Shown here: one piece after another, positions 68 to 10,812 of the stretch
Layout: every line of letters begins with the position of its first letter
How positions within the stretch are numbered: position 1 is the stretch's first letter
Source of the DNA: a virus
Length of the DNA stretch: 10,812 bases
Strand: one strand, 5' to 3'
Virus genome (UHGV): UHGV-0284389
Program-made: the position numbers and the translations under genes
Notes under the pieces: model-generated
Told to the model about the DNA's origin: nothing
The model's input: only the letters and a program-made list of their open reading frames with translations
Database searches by the model: none

Positions 68-139
68 TATGACACCTGTGTTGTTCTGAGGTGAGCATAT
101 CACCTCTGTTCAGGTGGCCAAATTCAGTAAACCACTTCA
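1..139 (-). mobile_element. IS911-like (IS3 family) insertion sequence, left end plus start of orfA; continues beyond window start
   Basis: Minus strand reads 5'-TGAAGTGGTTTACTGAATTTGGCCACC... from position 139, an IS3-family TG... terminus, followed by an ATG at 67-65 encoding [23 protein letters not shown] recognise this from memory as the IS911 OrfA N-terminus; not verified by search. Confidence 0.8.
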
Positions 140-1539
140 ATCAGGCTGTCGATGATGAATAACTGGATCCCGTATCGGCGGCGAGCGTAGTCGAATATTT
201 CGATCAGCCTGTCGGCTTTCGCCGTTCCGGTCAGGCCAAACACCCAAAGTCTTTCGTCATAAAATTTAAATGCAGAGTCAATTTCCAGCACTGGCGGCAT
301 CTTGCAGCACGTCGCCTGACGGGTAAGTCGCTTAAGGAGAATGCCTGGCTTCAGCTCAAGTGACGCGATGCACGTCTTCACACCCTGACGCATTGCCTCA
401 AGTGCCATATGCCCGACAACCTCCGTTTTTCCGTGACCGTTCACACCATTGACCAGCGTCAACTCGGCCTCACGGAACTGGAATTTATCTGCCAGAGATT
501 CCCACGGTGGATTAAACAGATACTGCTGCTTGCCGTAGAAAGCGTTGATAGTGTCCTGGTAAAACTCTCGCGCGCTGTAGAGTTCTTCAGGATCGAAGTA
601 GGATGCCGTGCCGATGTACTGCCAGATTTCATCCTCGGTAACACCGTTCATCAGGCATTCGTTGATGTCTTTGTACGGCAGAGTAACAAGACGGCAACGA
701 TGTTCACCGAGTCGGCTTGCGATTTCCCTTGCGGCTTCACGACCAACATCATCAACGTCCATCGAGATGAATATTTCCTCAAACCTGTCGAGATTGTGAT
801 ACTCAAACTCAATCCACTGCTGCTTAGCGCCTTTCCCGCCACCAAACGGCACGGATAACGCCGAGATGCCGTATTGCGCATAGCTCATACAATCAATTTC
901 GCCTTCGCAAAGTACAACCGCCCTCACGCCAGCGTCCAGAGCCTGCCATCCGAACAGACAAGGTTCGCAATCACCTTCTGCCATAATGACTTTCTTCCCG
1001 TCCGGGCGCTCAGTGCTGATTCGCTTGACCTGCAACAACTCACCATCGCGTTTGTACGGAAGCACCAGAGCATCCAGTTCTCGCTCTCCATTCCACACCT
1101 TGCCGCTGACAACCTCGTAGCGCTTTACGACTTCTGGCGATATGCCACGCGATTGCAGGTACTCAAGATGGGATTCTGTTCTGGTAACGTAGCGGGCGAT
1201 TTTCTTGCGATCAGGTCTGGAGAATTTCTTCTCACGTTTGGCATCGAAATGGTGATCGTCATCCTTGATACCGAGAAATGCTTTCGCTTCCTGCATAGCC
1301 TGATGCAGGTTAATTCCACGACATGCCATCCACAAATCAAGCATGTCACCGCCGTCTCCCTCAGCGAAATCAGCCCATTTTTTCTTGCCGCTAAGGTTGA
1401 CCTTAAGGCTGTTTCCCTTGTCACCGTTGACGTTACCGGCAACCCACTCATGCCCATCTTTCTTGCCGTTTGGCAACAGGTGCGGAGCCACCCTGTCAAC
1501 CTGCGCCCAAAGCAGGTCGCTAAGTTCACTTGGAGTCAT
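124..1539 (-). pseudogene. T7 gp4-like bifunctional DNA primase-helicase, C-terminally truncated by the IS911-like insertion
   Basis: 471-aa ORF. The central TOPRIM region (VVLCEGEIDCMSYAQYGISALSVPFGGG...MDVDDVGREAAREIA...LPYKDINECLMNG) aligns with the T7 gp4 primase core, and Walker A (GVNGHGKT) and Walker B (LFIIDSL) helicase motifs follow. The frame ends 4 codons after Walker B with residues EVVY-stop encoded by IS terminal sequence (junction at 139). Helicase motifs H3/H4 and the arginine finger are missing. RBS GAGG precedes the ATG at 1539. Confidence 0.8.
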
Positions 1540-1646
1540 TACGCTGACCTCAGATCGAGACGGTTAAACCAGAACTCAACGAATGCAGAACTAAGCCAGC
1601 CATGGTTATAGCCAGCGATAAGTAACGATTTGATTCTGGATTTCAT
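1539..1646 (-). CDS. small hypothetical ORF (35 aa) between the O-like gene and the primase-helicase gene
   Basis: ATG at 1646-1644 sits 3 nt after the O-like stop; its stop overlaps the primase-helicase start (TAATG). Translation MKSRIKSLLIAGYNHGWLSSAFVEFWFNRLDLRSA. No recognisable homology; RBS weak. Confidence 0.25.
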   Translation of the reverse strand: MKSRIKSLLIAGYNHGWLSSAFVEFWFNRLDLRSA

Positions 1647-1649
1647 GGT

Positions 1650-2510
1650 TCACCTGTCGAAAAACACGTAGCCAGTTTTCGATACGGTGATTGCGGATGA
1701 TGGTTTGGATTGTGGTTGAATAGTTTCTGGCTTCTCGTCGTTCCAGCGTTGACCGTTCAGGTAGCTTGATGGTAACAACCTGTCGAATCCGAACTGCTTA
1801 CCATTCCTGCATGCGATGTCTTCTGCCAGCATCGTGGCAAACTCGCTTGCCGTACCCCTGGTAGTTTTACGCCATTCCCTGAACTGTGTTCTGAATGCCG
1901 AAGCTGCGTTTTTCTTCCCGGCTTTCCGCATGCCTGCACACCAGAATATTTCCTCGAATGCCTTGTCGGTTTCTTCGTGACGGTCAGATGATTTTTCACA
2001 CTCAGTCCGAACACTTTCGGACATAGTGTTTTTATTATTTCTTTTTTCTTTTGTAATAGTTTCTTTTGTGTGTCCCTGTTTTGGTGACAGCGCTGTCACC
2101 GTTTTGGTGACACTTTTTGTCACCAATGCAGTGACATTATCACCAGAGTAGTGACACCCTTCGATTTGCCATTCCTCGATGTTCTTGTTAGGCCCGATTT
2201 GCTGGCCTTCGCGAAGGATAACCTTCATCGCGATAAGCTCATTCTTGGCCTTGTTTACCTTCTGTCTTGGCAGCCTGGTAATTTGAGCTAACTGACTATC
2301 AGAGATGCGATCCATCTTTTTACCGTAGCCGTATGTTTTACGGCATATGGCGTGGGCAACCTTGCTCTGATTTTTCGTTAAATCTGCGCCGATAAGCTCT
2401 TCATACAGGGCATTTGCAAGACGGGTATAACCATCTTCAACTTCTGCCACACGACGCTCCACAGGCCGTTGTGAAGGCCTTAAATGTGTTACGGTTGCAA
2501 GATTACTCAT
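1650..2510 (-). CDS. phage replication initiator, lambda O-like (replisome organiser), with origin iterons embedded
   Basis: 286-aa ORF sitting between cII and the helicase gene, as O does in lambda. The N-terminal segment ([58 protein letters not shown]) resembles the O N-terminal DNA-binding domain; a repetitive VT-rich linker is encoded by the iterons; the C-terminal motif is [34 protein letters not shown] upstream. Confidence 0.7.
2028..2072. promoter_or_regulatory. AT-rich tract flanking the iterons (candidate DNA-unwinding element of ori)
   Basis: TTTTTATTATTTCTTTTTTCTTTTGTAATAGTTTCTTTTGTG lies immediately next to the iteron array inside the O-like gene. Confidence 0.5.
2083..2157. repeat. 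iteron array of a putative phage replication origin (inverted GGTGACA/TGTCACC half-sites at ~20-25 bp spacing)
   Basis: GGTGACA at 2083-2089 and 2106-2112; TGTCACC at 2094-2100 and 2118-2124; GTGACA at 2131-2136; ATCACC at 2139-2144; GTGACAC at 2151-2157. All lie inside the O-like coding region, as in lambda ori. Confidence 0.65.
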
Positions 2511-2649
2511 GACCTTTCTCCTTCTGCATCAGCTTCACTTTTTCCAACTCAGCCCGGAATCGACCAGGCTGCTTGAAGCTGGACAGGAAGCGATCACGTA
2601 GTATGTGTTTGTGAATTTTGTCCTGGTAAGGACTGAGTTGTTTTGTCAT
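2503..2649 (-). CDS. small basic hypothetical protein (48 aa) between cII and the O-like gene
   Basis: ATG at 2649-2647 with a strong RBS (AGGAG, 6 nt spacing); its stop overlaps the O-like start. Translation [48 protein letters not shown]. No recognised homology. Confidence 0.45.
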
Positions 2650-2654
2650 AATGA

Positions 2655-2726
2655 CTCCTGTGGATTGATCCAGTCTTTCTACATCAGGCCTCGAAGAATT
2701 CGCCGTTCTTCGGGGCTTTTTCTTTT
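2655..2726 (+). ncRNA. oop-like antisense RNA candidate, ending in a strong intrinsic terminator opposite the cII 3' end
   Basis: Plus-strand hairpin CCTCGAAGAA-(TTCGCCG)-TTCTTCGGGG (2689-2715) followed by CTTTTTCTTTT. A candidate -10 CATAAT at 2647-2652 lies upstream. Position and orientation mirror lambda oop RNA, which is antisense to the cII 3' end. The 5' end is a guess. Confidence 0.4.
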
Positions 2727-2965
2727 GTCAGGTAATCGGCAAGCCGCTTAGTCAATTCAGCCATTTCATCGTCTTCGATTCCGTATTCCAGAACAGCAAG
2801 CATCATGCTTACCTGCGAGAAGAAACCATTCTTCCATCGGCTTACCTGATATTCAGGAACCCCCATCGCTCGAGCGAATGTCTTCTGCCCCATCAGTGCC
2901 AGTTTGTTCAGCAAGGCTGACTCGATGCGAGCCGCTTTCTTGCTTTTAGTTGCAATAGTACCCAT
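2684..2965 (-). CDS. cII: CII-like transcriptional activator
   Basis: 93 aa. [58 protein letters not shown] parallels lambda CII ([59 protein letters not shown]). RBS AAGGA; lies downstream of cro and nutR. Confidence 0.85.
2689..2726 (+). terminator. rho-independent terminator (10-bp stem, 7-nt loop, U-run)
   Basis: Stem 2689-2698 pairs with 2706-2715 (one G-U), followed by the T-rich run 2717-2726. Confidence 0.6.
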
Positions 2966-3041
2966 AGATAATTTCCTTAATGATTAGATAGAGTTGGCTT
3001 CGCAAAGAAACGCAAAACCATAGAGATTTGTTTCTGGTAAT

Positions 3042-3073
3042 GCCCTTTTTCAGGGCGGGGATGTGTAAGAGCG
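3042..3073 (-). promoter_or_regulatory. nutR (boxA CGCTCTTA at 3073-3066, boxB GCCCTGAAAAAGGGC at 3056-3042)
   Basis: Minus strand reads CGCTCTTACACATCCCCGCCCTGAAAAAGGGCAT, nearly identical to lambda nutR; located immediately downstream of cro. Confidence 0.85.
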
Positions 3074-3081
3074 TTAATAAC

Positions 3082-4410
<1,329 letters not shown>

Positions 4411-4485
4411 TGTAGTCGGAACCTGCAACCACTAATCCCCACCTCAATCTCAGTAACCCAAAAACAAACTATTTTCCGTTTAAAA

Positions 4486-4553
4486 ACAATGGAGTTTGTT
4501 TTTCACGCCCCTTTTTACAATATTTCTTGTTTACAACATACAATCTTTCTTGT
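4486..4553. promoter_or_regulatory. 434-type left operator (three ACAA-N6-TTGT sites: 4486-4499, 4517-4530, 4540-4553) with PL promoter
   Basis: Sites ACAATGGAGTTTGT, ACAATATTTCTTGT and ACAATCTTTCTTGT. Candidate PL -35 TTTACA (4530-4535) and -10 TAATTT (4553-4558), 17-bp spacer. The inferred start near 4565 is where the lambda-like leader ATCAGCAGGACGCACTGACC begins. Confidence 0.8.
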
Positions 4554-4597
4554 AATTTTAAGCCATCAGCAGGACGCACTGACCACCATGAAGGTGA

Positions 4598-4628
4598 CGC
4601 TCTTAAAAATTAAGCCCTGAAGAAGGGC
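4598..4628 (+). promoter_or_regulatory. nutL (boxA CGCTCTTA at 4598-4605, boxB GCCCTGAAGAAGGGC at 4614-4628)
   Basis: Sequence identical to lambda nutL boxA/boxB, within the PL leader upstream of N. Confidence 0.9.
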
Positions 4629-4785
4629 AGCATTCAAAGCAGAAGGCTTTGGTGTGTGTGATACGAAACGAAGCATTGGCCGGAAGTGCGAATCCGGATT
4701 AGCTGCCAATGTGCCATTGCGGGGTGTTTTCGTTCAGGACTACGACTCCCACACACAACCAAAGCTAACTGACAGGAGAATCCAG

Positions 4786-5118
4786 ATGGATGCACAAACA
4801 CGCCGCCGCGAACGTCGCGCAGAGAAACAGGCTCAATGGAAAGCAGCAAATCCCCTGTTGGTTGGGGTAAGCGCAAAACCAGTTAACCGCCCTATTCTCT
4901 CGCTGAATCGCAAACCGAAATCACGAGTAGAAAGCGCACTGAATCCGATAGACCTTACAGTGCTGGCTGAATACCACGAACAGATTGAAAGCAACCTGCA
5001 ACGTATTGAGCGCAAGAATCAGCGCACATGGTACAGCAAGCCACGTAGTGAAATGGGTGTGACCTGCTCAGGCCGCCAGAAGCAACGCGGAAAATCAATT
5101 CCAGCTTATTACGATTGA
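4786..5118 (+). CDS. N: antitermination protein N (lambda-like)
   Basis: 110 aa. MDAQTRRRERRAEKQAQWKAANPLLVGVSAKPVNRPILSLNRKPKSRVESALNPIDLTVLAEYH... is near-identical to lambda N, including the arginine-rich boxB-binding motif; the C-terminal ~25 aa diverge. RBS AGGAG. The track ORF 4654-5118 is an upstream in-frame extension. Confidence 0.93.
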   Translation: MDAQTRRRERRAEKQAQWKAANPLLVGVSAKPVNRPILSLNRKPKSRVESALNPIDLTVLAEYHEQIESNLQRIERKNQRTWYSKPRSEMGVTCSGRQKQRGKSIPAYYD

Positions 5119-5125
5119 GGTAGTC

Positions 5126-5263
5126 ATGCTCAAGAAAGTCAAACGCCGACTTTACAAAGAAGGTAGATATTCATGCCAATTGCCAAAATGCGACACAACA
5201 AAATGGAGTGTCGATGATTGGTGTAACTGGATAGATAGATACGGAACTTGGTGGGATAAATAA
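5126..5263 (+). CDS. small Cys-containing hypothetical protein (45 aa) immediately downstream of N
   Basis: ATG at 5126 with GAGG RBS 5 nt upstream. Translation MLKKVKRRLYKEGRYSCQLPKCDTTKWSVDDWCNWIDRYGTWWDK (3 Cys, Trp-rich). It occupies the lambda ral position but I see no sequence similarity. Not in the ORF track because it is under 60 aa. Confidence 0.4.
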   Translation: MLKKVKRRLYKEGRYSCQLPKCDTTKWSVDDWCNWIDRYGTWWDK

Positions 5264-5317
5264 CAGGTAACTTAAGCGTATTTACTTTCGCAGCAAACCA
5301 CTTATTTGAGGTGAGAT

Positions 5318-5788
5318 ATGACAAAATCATGGAGCGTACCTTTTCCTGAATCAGAAACTGAACATGATGGAATGCCTGTTTTCTGGAGATTCCAAGCGAC
5401 AGTTGAAGAAGGTGGAATCAAAATATTCGCACTTCAATATATAGCTTTTCATCAGACAGAGCATTATGCATGGTTGGTTCCTGCGCATTGGATTGTTAAT
5501 TTTAAACCAGCACCAAATCAGTGGTTACAGGAATGGAAACAAAGGAGAAATAGATATGCAATTAAGAAAGTAGCAAAAAATGCAGAAAGATCTTTTGCAT
5601 TCCCAACGAAGAAACTTGCCATTGAGAGTTTATTGCGCCGGAAGAAATACCATTTAATGAGAATCAAACAAGATTTGGCTGTTGTATCAACTCTTGTTGA
5701 TGGGATGAAGAATATTGATACATCAACACCAGATATTGAATATAACTTTGGACACAACCAAGAAACAGAAAATTGGGTATTTTATTAG
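5318..5788 (+). CDS. hypothetical protein (156 aa), low-GC moron in the PL operon
   Basis: Good RBS (GAGGTGA, ATG at 5318). By eye the GC content is well below the flanking genes. The C-terminal half is K/R-rich; no predicted TM segment. No homology recognised. Followed by its own intrinsic terminator at 5893-5918. Confidence 0.6.
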   Translation: MTKSWSVPFPESETEHDGMPVFWRFQATVEEGGIKIFALQYIAFHQTEHYAWLVPAHWIVNFKPAPNQWLQEWKQRRNRYAIKKVAKNAERSFAFPTKKLAIESLLRRKKYHLMRIKQDLAVVSTLVDGMKNIDTSTPDIEYNFGHNQETENWVFY

Positions 5789-5802
5789 TACAAATAAGCA
5801 CT

Positions 5803-5830
5803 GTGTATTCATTCCAACGAGTGAATACAC
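5803..5830. other. perfect 9-bp inverted repeat hairpin (GTGTATTCA...TGAATACAC)
   Basis: 5804-5812 pairs with 5822-5830, 9-nt loop, no U-run on the plus strand; intergenic after the moron. Confidence 0.4.
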
Positions 5831-5892
5831 GGAGCAATGTCGCTCGTAACTAAACAGGAGCCGACTTGTTCTGATTATTGAAAATCTTCTTT

Positions 5893-5918
5893 GCCCTCCG
5901 ATGTGAGGGCCTTTTTAT
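5893..5918 (+). terminator. rho-independent terminator
   Basis: GCCCTC-(CGATGT)-GAGGGC followed by CTTTTTAT. Confidence 0.7.
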
Positions 5919-5982
5919 ATGCATACCAATAACGCTTCACTTGAGGCGTTTTCGTTATGCAATCAAACAGAAGGAGCATCCT

Positions 5983-6153
5983 ATGCAACAGTTCGCTATT
6001 GCAGGGGCGGCATCGGTTCGCCCTTTCAACCCAATTTTATCGGTACAGCATTCACGAAAAAATATTTTAACCGGAGCAGACTTTAAACAACCAAGAATGA
6101 AAAGTTTGCTCGAAAAGCTTTGGGATATTTTGAAACAACAAGGCCGTCCATGA
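5983..6153 (+). CDS. cIII: CIII-like protein (FtsH protease inhibitor homologue)
   Basis: 56 aa from the ATG at 5983 (RBS AAGGAG, 6 nt spacing): MQQFAIAGAASVRPF...KSLLEKLWDILKQQGRP. Compare lambda CIII MQYAIAGWPVAG...RKLRDGWKRLIDILNQPGVP. The track ORF 5878-6153 starts inside the upstream terminator and is probably an artefactual extension. Confidence 0.6.
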   Translation: MQQFAIAGAASVRPFNPILSVQHSRKNILTGADFKQPRMKSLLEKLWDILKQQGRP

Positions 6154-6257
6154 GTTTTACAGATAACTGGTCAGACGAAGAATTCATTCGTCAGATGAAC
6201 AAAATGCTCAATCAGCACAAAGAACAGGAGAAAGATGATGATTCTGACTCTGAATGA
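6150..6257 (+). CDS. small acidic hypothetical protein (35 aa), overlapping the cIII stop (kil position)
   Basis: ATGA overlap with the cIII stop. Translation MSFTDNWSDEEFIRQMNKMLNQHKEQEKDDDSDSE. No homology recognised; may not be expressed. Confidence 0.3.
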   Translation: MSFTDNWSDEEFIRQMNKMLNQHKEQEKDDDSDSE

Positions 6258-6546
6258 TAAGCGTGAAATATCGCAAATAATCGCAAGTTTTACTGATGAA
6301 GATTACGAACGAATCAACAGTGAAGTTGATCGCCTCTGCAAACGTTGCGACCCAATAAGCGAAATGCTTCGCTCATATAAACCAGATGAACATACTAAGG
6401 ATGCTATCGACTGGCTGGAAGATGATGATTGTAACTATCAGGAAAAAGCCGCTGAATGGTTCTGGGATGCAATAACCGAAAGAGTTAAGGCTGAATATGC
6501 CTTCGCAATATTCAAACGCAGACACATTTTTGGAGAAGCTGCATGA
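6235..6546 (+). CDS. acidic hypothetical protein (103 aa) immediately upstream of recT (gam position)
   Basis: RBS AGGAG 6 nt upstream of the ATG; its stop overlaps the recT start (ATGA). MMILTLNDKREISQIIASFTDEDYERINSEVDRLCKRCDP... Not similar to lambda Gam by eye. Confidence 0.6.
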   Translation: MMILTLNDKREISQIIASFTDEDYERINSEVDRLCKRCDPISEMLRSYKPDEHTKDAIDWLEDDDCNYQEKAAEWFWDAITERVKAEYAFAIFKRRHIFGEAA

Positions 6547-7445
6547 GCAATATCGTTGAATTCGTTAAACAGCAGGAGCAGTTATTCTGCGGAGCATTGA
6601 CTGAACAGACGGTGACATGGGCTAAGGAAAGCCAGTTTGCAATTCAGTATTTCCAGAAAAACGATTACCTGGCTAAAACGGCACTGGCAAATCCAACCAG
6701 CGCACAGAACGCCATCATCAATGTTGCGGCGATCGGCATCACCTTAAACCCGGCCAGCAAACTGGCTTATCTGGTTCCTCGCGACGGCATGGTGTGCCTT
6801 GATATCAGTTACATGGGATTACTTCATCTTGCGCAATCGACAGGATCAATTAAGTGGGGACAATGCAAACTGGTGTACTCAAACGACACCTATGAATCAA
6901 ACGGCCTTGATTCAGCACCAACTCACAAATACAACGCATTTGGTGAGCGAGGCTCTATTGTTGGTGGTTATTGCACGGTTAAAACAGCAGATGGTGACTA
7001 CCTGACTGAAGAAATGAGTCTGGCAGAAATTAAAGCTGTGGAAGCAACGAGCAAGGCAAAGAATGGACCGTGGAAAACATTCTGGGAAGAGATGGCGCGT
7101 AAAACAATAGTTAAACGCGCCAGCAAATACTGGCCTAAAGCCCAGCGACTGGATAATGCCATTCACCTGCTTAACGAAGATGAAGGTATGCATCAGGAAC
7201 CAGTTATGCCACACAAATCAGAGGAAGATATCCGTGAAGATGAGCGGAAACGCCAGCAGGAAATAATGGATAAAGCACAATTTCTTTGCGATGAAATGGC
7301 TCAGGCAGAAAACATGGACGATTTGAAGCGATATTTTGCAGAAGCATATCGCCTGACATCTGGAATGAAATTGCAGCAGAACGTACAAGCCATTTACATA
7401 GAATGCAAAGCGAAACTGGAGGTTGCCAGTGAGCAAACTGTATGA
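6543..7445 (+). CDS. recT: RecT-family single-strand annealing protein (recombinase)
   Basis: 300 aa. The motif GPWKTFWEEMARKTIVKRASKYWP matches RecT GPWVTHWEEMAKKTAIRRLFKYLP. Sits at the bet position of the PL operon. Confidence 0.85.
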   Translation: MSNIVEFVKQQEQLFCGALTEQTVTWAKESQFAIQYFQKNDYLAKTALANPTSAQNAIINVAAIGITLNPASKLAYLVPRDGMVCLDISYMGLLHLAQSTGSIKWGQCKLVYSNDTYESNGLDSAPTHKYNAFGERGSIVGGYCTVKTADGDYLTEEMSLAEIKAVEATSKAKNGPWKTFWEEMARKTIVKRASKYWPKAQRLDNAIHLLNEDEGMHQEPVMPHKSEEDIREDERKRQQEIMDKAQFLCDEMAQAENMDDLKRYFAEAYRLTSGMKLQQNVQAIYIECKAKLEVASEQTV

Positions 7446-7911
7446 AATAGCCAATGAATACGCAAAGCTGATGGATTCAGATTTAGAGCCAGAGATGATT
7501 GCTGACACAATAGCAGGCATGGAAGGAGAATTTACCGATAAAATAGAGCAACTTCTTGCCATTATTAAAAATGAATCTGGTTATGCTGAACGCCTCAAGG
7601 ACGAGGCAAAGTCACTGAATGAACGAGCAGCAGTAATTCAAAATAAGATTGACAGCATTATGGCGTATATAGCGTCATCGCTTGAAATGGTTGGCAAGAA
7701 AAAGATTCGAGCAGGTATTCACCAGGTAACAATCCGCAAACCGTCAGAAACTGTAGAAATCATCGACTCAAGCGCCCTTCCTCCTGAATACGTTGAGTTT
7801 GAAACGACAATTAAAGCCGACAAGTTGGCAATCAAACACCAACTAAAAGCAGGAATAAATATCCCCGGTGCTCAACTCAAAGTTGGGAAACCTTCACTTC
7901 TTATCAAATAA
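7429..7911 (+). CDS. Siphovirus Gp157-like protein
   Basis: Probable GTG start at 7429 (RBS GGAGG 7 nt upstream; the track uses TTG at 7423). The N-terminus SKLYEIANEYAKLMD...EPEMIADTIAGMEGEF and predicted coiled-coil resemble the Gp157 family often found next to RecT/ERF genes. Assigned from memory. Confidence 0.5.
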   Translation: MSKLYEIANEYAKLMDSDLEPEMIADTIAGMEGEFTDKIEQLLAIIKNESGYAERLKDEAKSLNERAAVIQNKIDSIMAYIASSLEMVGKKKIRAGIHQVTIRKPSETVEIIDSSALPPEYVEFETTIKADKLAIKHQLKAGINIPGAQLKVGKPSLLIK

Positions 7912-7922
7912 CGGTATCGCCT

Positions 7923-8237
7923 ATGAAAAAGACTCCTTGGGAGAAATGGGAAGTCGGTTTCTTGCGCGAAGTAGCGGCAACAATGCCAGTTGAAGTTATC
8001 GCTGAAAAACTGGAAAGGACTGAAAAAGCAGTAATGGCGAAAGCAACAAGGATTGGCGCTGACATTGTTAGCCGACTTCGTGGAAGACGATGGACAAGAG
8101 CCGAAGTATCACTTTTCGGTAAGTTCTCCGCAGAAGAAATAGCAATTGCAACCTGCCGCTCAATTTATTCAGTGAGAGCTATGCGATACAAGCTAAAAAA
8201 ACTCGATGAAGAGAGAACAGGCATACAAATAAATTAA
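7923..8237 (+). CDS. hypothetical protein (104 aa) with an internal tandem duplication of a ~40-aa helix-rich motif
   Basis: Two similar segments: [40 protein letters not shown] and [38 protein letters not shown]. Possibly tandem HTH-like units. Confidence 0.55.
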
Positions 8238-8253
8238 CAAAGAGGAATTTACC

Positions 8254-8421
8254 ATGAGAGGGCTTGCATACAATCCCGGCATTCTTCCGGCAGAAATGAT
8301 TATTCGCCAACGCGTAAAGCCAATGCCATCGAGAGAGGAATTGCTTAAGAGAAATTCTTTTCCATCAGTGAATCAAAACAAATATCTGAATGCGATGTGG
8401 CGCAAAGGAGGCAACCAGTGA
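8254..8421 (+). CDS. small hypothetical protein (55 aa)
   Basis: ATG at 8254 with RBS AGAGG; its stop overlaps the next gene's GTG start (GTGA). [55 protein letters not shown]. Confidence 0.4.
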
Positions 8422-8861
8422 GCAAGATTGATTATCAGGCACTGCGTGCTAAGGCAGAAAAAGCAACGTGTGGTGAGTGGTCGCTCGAATATGGAGAGGG
8501 CCGATTTGATGGTGATGATGCACTAATTCATCGCGAGGCTGCTGGATATATTCCCATTTGCAGAATTGAAGGAGCGCATCCTGAAAGCGGTTTCGATGAA
8601 GATTTCCAAATGGAACAGCAGGCCAATGCTGAATTCATCGCCGCAGCCAGCCCAGCTACCGTGCTGGAATTACTGGATGAACTGGAAGCAGCAAAAAAGC
8701 GCATTGCAGAACTGGAAGCGCGGGAAATACTGCTCCCGGAACGTAGCAGCATGCTTCATCGAACAGATTTTCACGAGGATTACCAAACGGTAATGGCATA
8801 CAAAGTTTCTGAGGTCATCGCTGCAATCCGCGCCGCTGGCATTCGCATCAAAGGAGAGTGA
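8418..8861 (+). CDS. Ead/Ea22-like family protein
   Basis: Probable GTG start at 8418 with a strong RBS AAAGGAGG (the track starts at a GTG at 8397, which would lie in the RBS). Motifs CGEW...[16 protein letters not shown]...[36 protein letters not shown] are typical of Ead/Ea22-like prophage proteins. Confidence 0.6.
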
Positions 8862-8862
8862 G

Positions 8863-9054
8863 ATGGACGGACAAATATCAATCGTTCGACCAGGAGCATG
8901 TGACGATCGCGAAATACGAATAATTATTCGTCTGGCAATGGGGAAAGCAATAACTGCTCTCATTACCCCAGAAAATCTCGCATTAGCATTAACAGGAAAG
9001 TCAGACCTGCCAGTAGAGCTAAAGCTGCGAAATGTTGAGATTAAGGTGAAATAG
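8863..9054 (+). CDS. small hypothetical protein (63 aa)
   Basis: ATG at 8863 with RBS AAAGGAG; tightly packed between the ead-like and DUF551 genes. Confidence 0.45.
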   Translation: MDGQISIVRPGACDDREIRIIIRLAMGKAITALITPENLALALTGKSDLPVELKLRNVEIKVK

Positions 9055-9056
9055 CT

Positions 9057-9596
9057 ATGACCACTATTACCAAAGAACGTATCGAATTATTCATTAAAAA
9101 TCCGCTTGATAACGGGCTTACCCGTGGCGAACAAATGGAAGTGGCACGGATTGCACTGGCATCACTGGGAGCAGAACCTGTAAGCCAAACTTACAACTTT
9201 CCAGAATTAATCGAAGGCATGGAGGTTTCCATTGATGTAAGCACTTGTGATGCGGATTTAGGTAATCGCTATTTCGGTATCGTCACCGAGGCGTTAGAAC
9301 TTGATACTGCCAAGAATGGTTACATCCTCCCGGTTCAGGACGCAGAGCCAAACTTCGATATAAATGGCAACTCTCCGGTAACTCCGGATGGTTGGATAAG
9401 CTGTAGTGAGCGAATGCCGGAAGAAACGGGTGACATTATTGTTGTTTCTGATGGCATTGTAATGTCAGGGATTTCTTATTCTCGTCGTGACGGGTTCTAT
9501 ATAGCCGCATTGGAGTACGACGACGATGAGCCAATTGGCGGTGTAACCCACTGGATGCCGCTACCGGAACCGCCGCAGGAGGTTAACCGTGGCTAA
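9057..9596 (+). CDS. DUF551 domain-containing phage protein
   Basis: C-terminal DGWISCSERMPEETGDIIVV...GGVTHWMPLPEPP is the hallmark DUF551 motif common in enterobacterial prophage ea regions. Confidence 0.6.
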   Translation: MTTITKERIELFIKNPLDNGLTRGEQMEVARIALASLGAEPVSQTYNFPELIEGMEVSIDVSTCDADLGNRYFGIVTEALELDTAKNGYILPVQDAEPNFDINGNSPVTPDGWISCSERMPEETGDIIVVSDGIVMSGISYSRRDGFYIAALEYDDDEPIGGVTHWMPLPEPPQEVNRG

Positions 9597-9873
9597 CCTG
9601 CAACTTGCCGTCAAAGGTGAATACTTCGATGCCATGATTCGCAGAGAGAAAACTGAAGAGTATCGCCTGTGTAATGACTATTGGAATAAGCGCCTCGTTA
9701 ACCGTAAGTATGACCGCCTGATTATCACAAAGGGATATCCGAAGCGCGACGATTCCAGCCGTAGAATTGACGTCCCGTATGAAGAGTATGAAATAAAAAC
9801 AATCACACATCCGCACTTCGGTGATAAACCGGTAAAGGTGTTCGCGATAAAGGTGAATATCGACAATGAATGA
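9589..9873 (+). CDS. ASCH/PUA-like domain protein (hypothetical)
   Basis: GTG start with RBS AGGAGG 6 nt upstream, overlapping the previous stop. LQLAVKGEYFDAMIRREKTEEYRL...RLIITKGYP resembles ASCH/DUF3850-type small phage proteins; assignment is tentative. Confidence 0.4.
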   Translation: MANLQLAVKGEYFDAMIRREKTEEYRLCNDYWNKRLVNRKYDRLIITKGYPKRDDSSRRIDVPYEEYEIKTITHPHFGDKPVKVFAIKVNIDNE

Positions 9874-9945
9874 CAATCCTCGCACTCGCGTGGATTTCTT
9901 TTATCTGAACTCGCTACGGCGAGTTTTGTTTTATGGAGATGATAA

Positions 9946-10113
9946 ATGCACTTCCGAGTCACTGGTGAATGGAATGGAGAGCCATTCGACAGGGTTATCG
10001 AAGCAGAGGACATCAACGACTGCTATAACCACTGGATGATATGGGCGCAGATAGCGCATGCAGACGTAACCAATATTCGAATTGAAGAACTGAAAGAACA
10101 CCAAGCCGCCTGA
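9946..10113 (+). CDS. small hypothetical protein (55 aa)
   Basis: ATG at 9946 with GGAG RBS; the stop codon sits in the loop of the terminator at 10103-10128. MHFRVTGEWNGEPFDRVIEAEDINDCYNHWMIWAQIAHADVTNIRIEELKEHQAA. Confidence 0.4.
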   Translation: MHFRVTGEWNGEPFDRVIEAEDINDCYNHWMIWAQIAHADVTNIRIEELKEHQAA

Positions 10114-10128
10114 TGGCGGTTTTTTATT
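10103..10128 (+). terminator. rho-independent terminator
   Basis: AAGCCGCC-(TGAT)-GGCGGTTT followed by TTTTTATT. Confidence 0.7.
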
Positions 10129-10170
10129 GCCTGATTTGCAGGTTCGATTCCCTATTCAGAGATAGCACTC

Positions 10171-10371
10171 ATGCAACACGAACTACAACCTGATTCACTG
10201 GTTGATTTGAAATTCATCATGGCTGATACTGGCTTCGGTAAAACCTTCATCTATGACCGGATTAAGTCCGGCGACCTGCCAAAAGCCAAAGTTATCCACG
10301 GTCGAGCAAGATGGTTATATCGTGACCATTGTGAATTCAAAAATAAGCTCTTAAGCCGCGCCAATGGGTAA
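10171..10371 (+). CDS. AlpA-family / excisionase (Xis)-like DNA-binding protein
   Basis: 66 aa. LVDLKFIMADTGFGKTFIYDRIKSGDLPKAKVIHGRARWLYRDHCEF fits the AlpA/Xis winged-helix pattern (G.S..TIY..I..G.FP.P.K.G.R..RW). It sits at the distal end of the PL-direction operon where xis is expected. Confidence 0.55.
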   Translation: MQHELQPDSLVDLKFIMADTGFGKTFIYDRIKSGDLPKAKVIHGRARWLYRDHCEFKNKLLSRANG

Positions 10372-10707
10372 AATAGCGGGTAAAATATTTCTCACATCTA
10401 AAAAACACCATTCCAATCAATCCCCTGCTGCTTCAAGTAGATGTCTGCAGGGGACACCATATAAACGTTGCCCGCCATTCACCACGATGACCTAAACGCC
10501 AGCCAGAACGTATTCTTCTCGTAATCATAATTAGCCAACGATTTCAGTATGGTTAGTCCTGCCAGAAAGGAACGTGTCTTTGTCGATCACGCACACAATA
10601 AACCGACAGCAACGCGCATTTCTGCGTACAATACCTTCTGAATTTTTCAGTCACTAGCCGCGACCTTTTACAACCTTCTCTGGACGATACAGGAGCCAGG
10701 CGTTGAT

Positions 10708-10812
10708 ATGAAACAGATCACCCTCAGCGATATGCAGCAGCAGAGCGAAGCGGCAGCCAGTGCTCCGCGCCTGCGTGCCCATCGCAATTTTCATCCTGAA
10801 CTGAGCGACCCG
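10708..10812 (+). CDS. 5' fragment of an unidentified gene (possibly host or junction-proximal), continues beyond window
   Basis: ATG at 10708 (AGGAG 12 nt upstream, long spacing). MKQITLSDMQQQSEAAASAPRLRAHRNFHPELSDP. Does not resemble a tyrosine-integrase N-terminus. Confidence 0.3.
   Translation, partial: MKQITLSDMQQQSEAAASAPRLRAHRNFHPELSDP

Follow-up and report, generated by a model that had tools for sequence, protein, structure and literature searches.

A torI excisionase gene at the probable attR end of a KplE1/HK620/Sf6-type prophage in Klebsiella pneumoniae argW

In phage lambda, int lies directly after xis and attP lies beyond int, and both genes are found together at one end of the prophage. 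A different arrangement has been described for KplE1 (CPS-53) of E. coli K-12, in which attP lies between xis and int (PMC2951348); this prophage begins with intS and ends with torI, the transcription of the two genes is uncoupled, and an autoregulated promoter within attL drives intS (PMC2951348, PMC3509656). The recombination directionality factor (RDF) of KplE1, TorI, has been characterised by experiment and is reported to be 100% identical to HkaC of HK620 and gp18 of Sf6 (PMC3509656). IntS binds TAAA arm-type sites, the motif that its P' arm-type sites have in common, as well as the core, and TorI binds five boxes on the P' arm of attL, with the recognition sequences GTTCG, GATCG and GTCCG, and directs excision (PMC2951348); IHF was included in the published in vitro excision reactions (PMC2951348, PMC3509656). 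The KplE1-type module and lambda share a small winged-helix RDF at the distal end of an N-antiterminated PL operon and heterobivalent Int arm-type sites, and an IHF role has likewise been published for KplE1. However, whereas lambda has the order xis-int-attP with sib retroregulation, attP splits torI and intS in the KplE1-type module, the KplE1 intS gene has its own autoregulated attL promoter and TorI binds the P' arm (attL), not the P arm.

We analysed a stretch of 10,812 nucleotides of the virus genome UHGV-0284389 (the window), which the ORF list together with Pfam and PHROG matches identified as the early region of a lambdoid/P22-like prophage. The minus strand carries a primase/helicase gene (124-1539), an O-like replication gene (1650-2510), a CII-like gene (2684-2965) and a Cro-like gene, and the plus strand carries a LexA-type cI repressor gene (3401-4033), an N-like antiterminator gene (4654-5118), a RecT gene (6543-7445), a DUF551 gene (9057-9596) and further small genes. 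The last small early-left gene is a 55-aa ORF on the plus strand (9946-10113) of no known function, which gave no Pfam or NCBIfam match and corresponds to a hypothetical protein beside torI in E. coli prophage annotation. This layout indicates that the plus strand is the early-left (PL) direction and that the torI end is the distal end of the early-left region. The prophage in the window has a full immunity, replication and recombination region; KplE1, by contrast, is a remnant of 10.2 kb that lacks cI. Our data very strongly favour the interpretation that positions 10104-10812 are the attR end of a lambdoid/P22-like prophage in argW of K. pneumoniae, with a recombination module of the KplE1/HK620/Sf6 type. 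This module is already known, and the locus departs from the published descriptions only in its host species. All of the module features that are visible in the window were found, and they follow one another as terminator, T-arm-like box, SD, torI, two GGGTAAAATA repeats, IHF-like site and inverted repeat, core and host DNA.

The initial annotation had recognised an Xis-like gene in this region, and the gene is real: the ORF at 10171-10371 (plus strand) is torI, which encodes an RDF (excisionase). Its 66-aa product is identical at 66/66 residues to TorI in PDB 1Z4H ('Tor inhibition protein') and matches PHROG 66, 'excisionase and transcriptional regulator' (E=2.7e-8). The match to Pfam HTH_17 fell below the cutoff, so the family placement rests on the PDB identity and the PHROG match. 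By its RDF, the 66-aa winged-helix protein TorI/HkaC/gp18, the locus belongs to the KplE1/HK620/Sf6-type module. The torI region was found in 2975 of 5426 complete E. coli genomes, with torI annotated in all of the matches listed, while the whole-window search found this phage at >=80% coverage in no complete E. coli genome. In comparison with KplE1 (PMC2951348, PMC3509656), the TorI protein and the 16-nt core are identical, the P arm of attR is the same, the target is argW and the prophage genes end with torI beside attR, as in the window; the difference lies in the host, K. pneumoniae, and in the right flank, which holds wbuC instead of dsdC or csc. The P22-like phages Sf6 and HK620 (Lederbergvirus) have the same succession of terminator, torI homologue, small overlapping ORF (gene 17/HkaB), attP core and int, and Sf6 DNA is ~96.5% identical where aligned (32% of the whole-window query), the match ending at 10463. 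However, these are phage-form (attP) genomes, whereas the window holds the integrated attR form, and their early-left genes are mosaically different.

The attachment site itself is well defined. The P arm and core of attR occupy 10348-10460 on the plus strand and overlap torI at its 3' end; attR-IHF2, a published primer for the attR substrate (PMC3509656), matches 10348-10367 exactly, so attR begins inside the torI 3' end. The 16-nt att core CTGCAGGGGACACCAT, the same sequence as the core duplication described in KplE1 (PMC2951348), lies at 10445-10460 (plus strand) as its sole exact match in the window. From a comparison with argW of E. coli and K. pneumoniae, it corresponds to the 3' end of tRNA-Arg(CCT) argW plus 1 nt. 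ARAGORN found no tRNA gene in the window, which holds tRNA fragments only, and a tRNA scan alone would therefore miss the att site. The core is the region of crossover, and the prophage/host junction falls at 10459/10460: the window, the circular 0H24 element and the attR of the E. coli lysogen elppa10 could be aligned as near-identical sequences up to ...CTGCAGGGGACACCA at 10459 and are unrelated beyond it. Megablast matches in E. coli covered query positions 1-564, corresponding to 9900-10463 of the window, and none reached further. The same boundary emerged from 80 IMG/VR loci encoding an identical TorI. The predicted prophage contig ends at most ~110 nt after torI in 29 of these 80 loci, and in all of the 41 loci that reach the core it starts 73 nt after the torI stop codon, as it does in the window. 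Beyond the core follow about six distinct flank types (14 sequence variants), including several host flanks and the phage P' arm. A core at a fixed position followed by varied flanks is the signature of an attachment site.

The P arm also contains candidate binding sites for the recombination proteins. Two direct repeats of GGGTAAAATA, candidate IntS arm-type sites recovered by the repeat finder, are located at 10366-10375 and 10378-10387 on the plus strand, the first of them overlapping the torI stop codon. The motif GGGTAAAA occurs four times in the window against 0.29 expected. The same motif is also present, in both orientations, in the P' arm of attL, and the repeats are kept in 10 of 10 diverged modules. 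Closer to the core is a perfect 8-bp inverted repeat, TCCCCTGC at 10421-10428 and GCAGGGGA at 10447-10454, with arms 18 nt apart; the right arm lies inside the tRNA-derived core, and the left arm abuts a weak IHF-like match, AATCAATCCCCTG at 10415-10427, which has one mismatch to the IHF consensus and is a candidate only, the count of such matches in the scan of the whole window being that expected by chance. The initial annotation had noticed this palindrome but placed it at 10424-10452. The inverted repeat straddling the core is kept across genera in diverged modules and covaries in Edwardsiella and Cedecea (L091, L102), where TCCCTG pairs with CAGGGA. It may act as a core-type site for Int, form an IHF flank or mimic an acceptor stem. 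The compensatory TCCCTG...CAGGGA pair occurs where the base of the tRNA acceptor stem differs (Edwardsiella, Cedecea).

Beyond the core, positions 10461-10812 (plus strand) are K. pneumoniae chromosomal DNA downstream of argW, comprising an intergenic region and the start of wbuC. Using a degenerate pattern derived from the ORF at 10708, we found K. pneumoniae ATCC 13883, in which an intact tRNA-Arg(CCT) gene is directly followed by sequence 98.9% identical to 10445-10812 (4 mismatches). Upstream of this tRNA gene, as in E. coli, is a homologue of yfdC whose product shares 82% identity with the E. coli protein, and the Klebsiella argW allele reads ...GGGCTAGTTGCAGG.... Judged from its sequence, the argW site of ATCC 13883 is an empty attB. 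The ORF at 10708 had been thought not to resemble an integrase, which is correct: its ATG at 10708 opens a WbuC-family cupin gene, of which the first 35 codons (10708-10812, plus strand) precede the end of the window. The full-length homologue of this ORF (160 aa) scored 144 bits against TIGR04366 (cupin_WbuC; cutoff 42), and the idea that the ORF might continue into a tyrosine recombinase beyond the window does not hold. A promoter-like site lies at 10603-10632 in the host intergenic region. E. coli was considered as the host and rejected, its matches to the right flank being just 73-78% identical WbuC cupin genes, plasmid-borne in 165 of 172 places. The prophage boundary is thereby fixed to the nucleotide (10459/10460) with K. 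pneumoniae as the host, which is useful for prophage delimitation.

Another element integrated in tandem at argW could in principle account for 10461-10812, with the host junction and the integrase lying further to the right. Such arrangements do exist, since in L106 and L108 an identical torI has, 264 bp beyond it, the gene of another tyrosine integrase (47% identity to IntS) and then a lacIZY/IS1 island, and in Hafnia a P4-like integrase, with a P4 cII-like gene beside it, comes after xis. Here, however, K. pneumoniae ATCC 13883 has the sequence right of the core directly after an argW that is intact and unoccupied, in the conserved yfdC-argW setting, the first gene is the WbuC cupin and not an integrase, and two other Klebsiella xis modules (L094, L104) have the same wbuC neighbour. 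We therefore regard a tandem element as extremely improbable and retain the junction of prophage and host. Tandem occupancy of argW was observed at L106/L108 (11115-12778) and in Hafnia (L087, 3001-4634); where a foreign integrase comes after torI, a reader expecting the lambda order could be misled the other way.

The initial annotation started from the order xis, int and att, which holds for lambda but not here, and offered two explanations for a missing integrase, a prophage/host junction with int elsewhere or a deletion of int that had left the prophage locked in. The first is borne out by the argW-derived core at the junction, the empty attB and the host wbuC gene at 10708. A lambda-type organisation was not found: the core lies 73 nt after xis and is followed by host DNA with WbuC, and in phage-form genomes int follows attP. 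In a circular 39.4-kb phage-form element (E. coli 0H24), torI is followed by a 250-bp gap and intS, and the Sf6 record has the order gene 18 (the HkaC/TorI homologue), gene 17, attP core and gene 16 (integrase). In the E. coli lysogen elppa10, the phage genes end with torI, beside the host csc/dsd genes, and intS lies ~43 kb from torI, beside tRNA-Arg and yfdC, with a P' arm after the tRNA identical to that of the circular form. Similarly, four IMG/VR prophage contigs (9.7, 32.7, 39.6 and 42.4 kb), those common to the TorI and IntS searches, have intS at one end and torI at the other, both pointing the same way. With attP between torI and intS, the lack of int after xis is the normal state of the prophage, and by analogy with these genomes we infer that intS of this prophage is probably still present, ~30-40 kb to the left of the window. 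A search of IMG/VR for the Klebsiella-type attL junction (argW allele plus TTTAT) returned a sole contig, which was rejected as a different element with an integrase 46% identical to IntS.

The prophage may also have moved recently. The same 10.3 kb of phage DNA (window 133-10460, compared with L106-L111) recurs at 99.9% identity in at least three chromosomal settings: an E. coli-type chromosome with the flank dsdC-dsdX-dsdA-emrYK-evgAS, a set of Klebsiella-like contexts and a tandem arrangement with another island; the wbuC flank of the Klebsiella-like copies is just 82% identical to that of the window. Such identity in different contexts argues for recent mobility and hence for a working integrase, and it seems that one phage lysogenises several genera at argW (E. 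coli-type, Klebsiella-like and, here, K. pneumoniae). These observations weigh against loss of the integrase by far-end deletion or decay, which would leave the prophage locked in and torI as an orphan excisionase. Consistent with such a loss, the window is without int, KplE1-type remnants down to ~10 kb exist (PMC2951348; the 9.7-kb IMG/VR contig), and in some diverged relatives, those of Edwardsiella, Mixta and Cronobacter, a P'-like arm comes after xis and the core but the next 3 kb hold no int, so that decay does occur in the family. However, a missing int after torI is the normal architecture and hence uninformative, attR is intact in its P arm, arm-type repeats and core, host DNA begins precisely at the core, and the window holds intact genes for regulation and replication (PHROG). 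Taking these points together with the evidence for recent mobility, we consider loss of the integrase very unlikely. A lone xis at a prophage end is thus the expected signature of argW-integrating KplE1/HK620/Sf6-type modules and not the sign of a crippled prophage. The P'-like arms of Edwardsiella, Mixta and Cronobacter contain GTTCG/GTCCG boxes (L091-L093, 3275-3330; L100, 3270-3330; L088/L090, 3275-3330) and are followed by IS1 or small host genes in place of an integrase; these loci may represent either genuine int loss or leftover att remnants.

The 336-bp gap after torI (10372-10707) had been described as containing no ORF, only short palindromes, and finding it to be conserved phage sequence was to speak against the initial annotation. 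This applies to half of it: the part at 10372-10459 is indeed conserved phage DNA, the P arm of attR, whereas 10460-10707 is host DNA. The gap lacks any ORF of >=60 aa, but a 43-aa ORF is present at 10364-10495, overlapping the torI stop codon and running across the att core. It lies at the place of Sf6 gene 17, the homologue of HK620 HkaB, to which it was matched by position only. The C-terminal third of the 43-aa ORF is encoded by host DNA in the prophage, and integration therefore changes its product. The second palindrome reported for the gap, CTGAATTTTTCAG, exists, but at 10638-10650 and not at 10648-10660; it has arms of just 4 bp and belongs to the host DNA.

Upstream of torI, the strong terminator of the initial annotation is present. 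The terminator scan placed it at 10103-10125 on the plus strand, between the early-left operon and torI, with an 8-bp stem (10103-10122), a UGAU tetraloop and a T-run to 10125; its folding energy is -13 kcal/mol (z = -3.5 against shuffles), and the stop codon of the preceding 55-aa ORF falls in its loop. The terminator is identical in the torI modules of Sf6 and E. coli, and in two of the six diverged modules with a T-arm box, the xis modules of Cedecea and Atlantibacter, a hairpin and T-run of different sequence occupy the same position. Our scan found no sigma-70 promoter between the terminator and torI, and the 'pI' annotated at this spot in Sf6 is a prediction by the depositors. A further hairpin that resembles a terminator, also followed by a T-run, is found at 9907-9926, upstream of the 55-aa ORF and ~200 bp before the main terminator. 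A mosaic joint lies directly after the terminator, at 10128-10133 of the window, where the Sf6 annotation has the boundary sequence bsq2; Sf101, mEp043, HK140 and others are similar to the window up to 10128-10133 and then diverge, and in Sf6, HK633, Kapi1 and others the similarity runs on to the att core.

The conservation of the terminator, in conjunction with the analogy to lambda, suggests that it may have a regulatory role. In the phage genome the early-left operon is followed by the terminator, torI (xis), attP and intS; the cut made on integration falls between torI and intS, which leaves intS beside argW at attL and torI as the last phage gene before attR in the lysogen. We propose that, by analogy with lambda, cI repression of PL and the intrinsic terminator would keep torI silent in the lysogen, and after induction PL transcription modified by N, for which the N-like gene at 4654-5118 is a candidate source, would read through the terminator. 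Following the work on KplE1, excision would be triggered by the synthesis of TorI, intS being expressed from its own autoregulated attL promoter, and TorI would turn a constitutively low IntS activity into excision. In a statement of PMC11551753 that cites Menouni 2013, Rho inhibition is reported to raise the copy number of CPS-53.

An additional element lies between the terminator and torI. The T-arm-like 16-mer TTGCAGGTTCGATTCC at 10136-10151 (plus strand) contains the TorI-box pentamer GTTCG and is identical to positions ~47-62 of the argW tRNA, that is, the end of the variable loop, the T-stem and the T-loop. It is unique in the window, where ~0.01 occurrences are expected with up to 2 mismatches, and it is found 35 nt before the torI ATG in 66 of 72 IMG/VR loci and also in Sf6 and E. 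coli. The torI/att module has its left edge here, at a mosaic joint where many phages lose similarity (10128-10133). The box was also located in L006 (12439-12454), L001 (6237-6252), L002 (1346-1361) and L087/L091/L096/L102/L105 (~2960-2985). Of 11 diverged xis lineages, 6 retain the 14-nt core of the box, CAGGTTCGATTCCC, although their flanks have diverged, and the other five lack it; the core is unchanged in the E. coli-type, Hafnia, Edwardsiella, Cedecea and Atlantibacter modules and almost unchanged in Serratia fonticola. In tRNA coordinates the box abuts the att core exactly, so that the 293 bp comprising torI and the P arm look as if inserted into a continuous 31-nt segment of the argW 3' end, and the box is a better copy of the left half-site of attB than is the phage's own attP. 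An explanation through RNA structure, including weak anti-SD pairing, was rejected (RNAalifold, -2.25 kcal/mol; no compensatory pairs). That the box is a functional DNA operator, and not the relic of a once-continuous tRNA segment, is a tentative idea that we think rather unlikely. If it were an operator, TorI, by autoregulation, or IntS could control the expression of torI, and the conserved T-arm/TorI-box element would be a possible regulator of excision. Published work of 2010 described the torI promoter region as uncharacterised, and our literature search found nothing relevant on a torI promoter or autoregulation.

A different layout was observed for the TorI homologue of Proteus, a 62-aa protein 74% identical to TorI (L098/L099, 3001-4338). 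There, xis is followed by neither GGGTAAA repeats nor an argW core, and a tyrosine integrase gene on the opposite strand overlaps the 3' end of xis.
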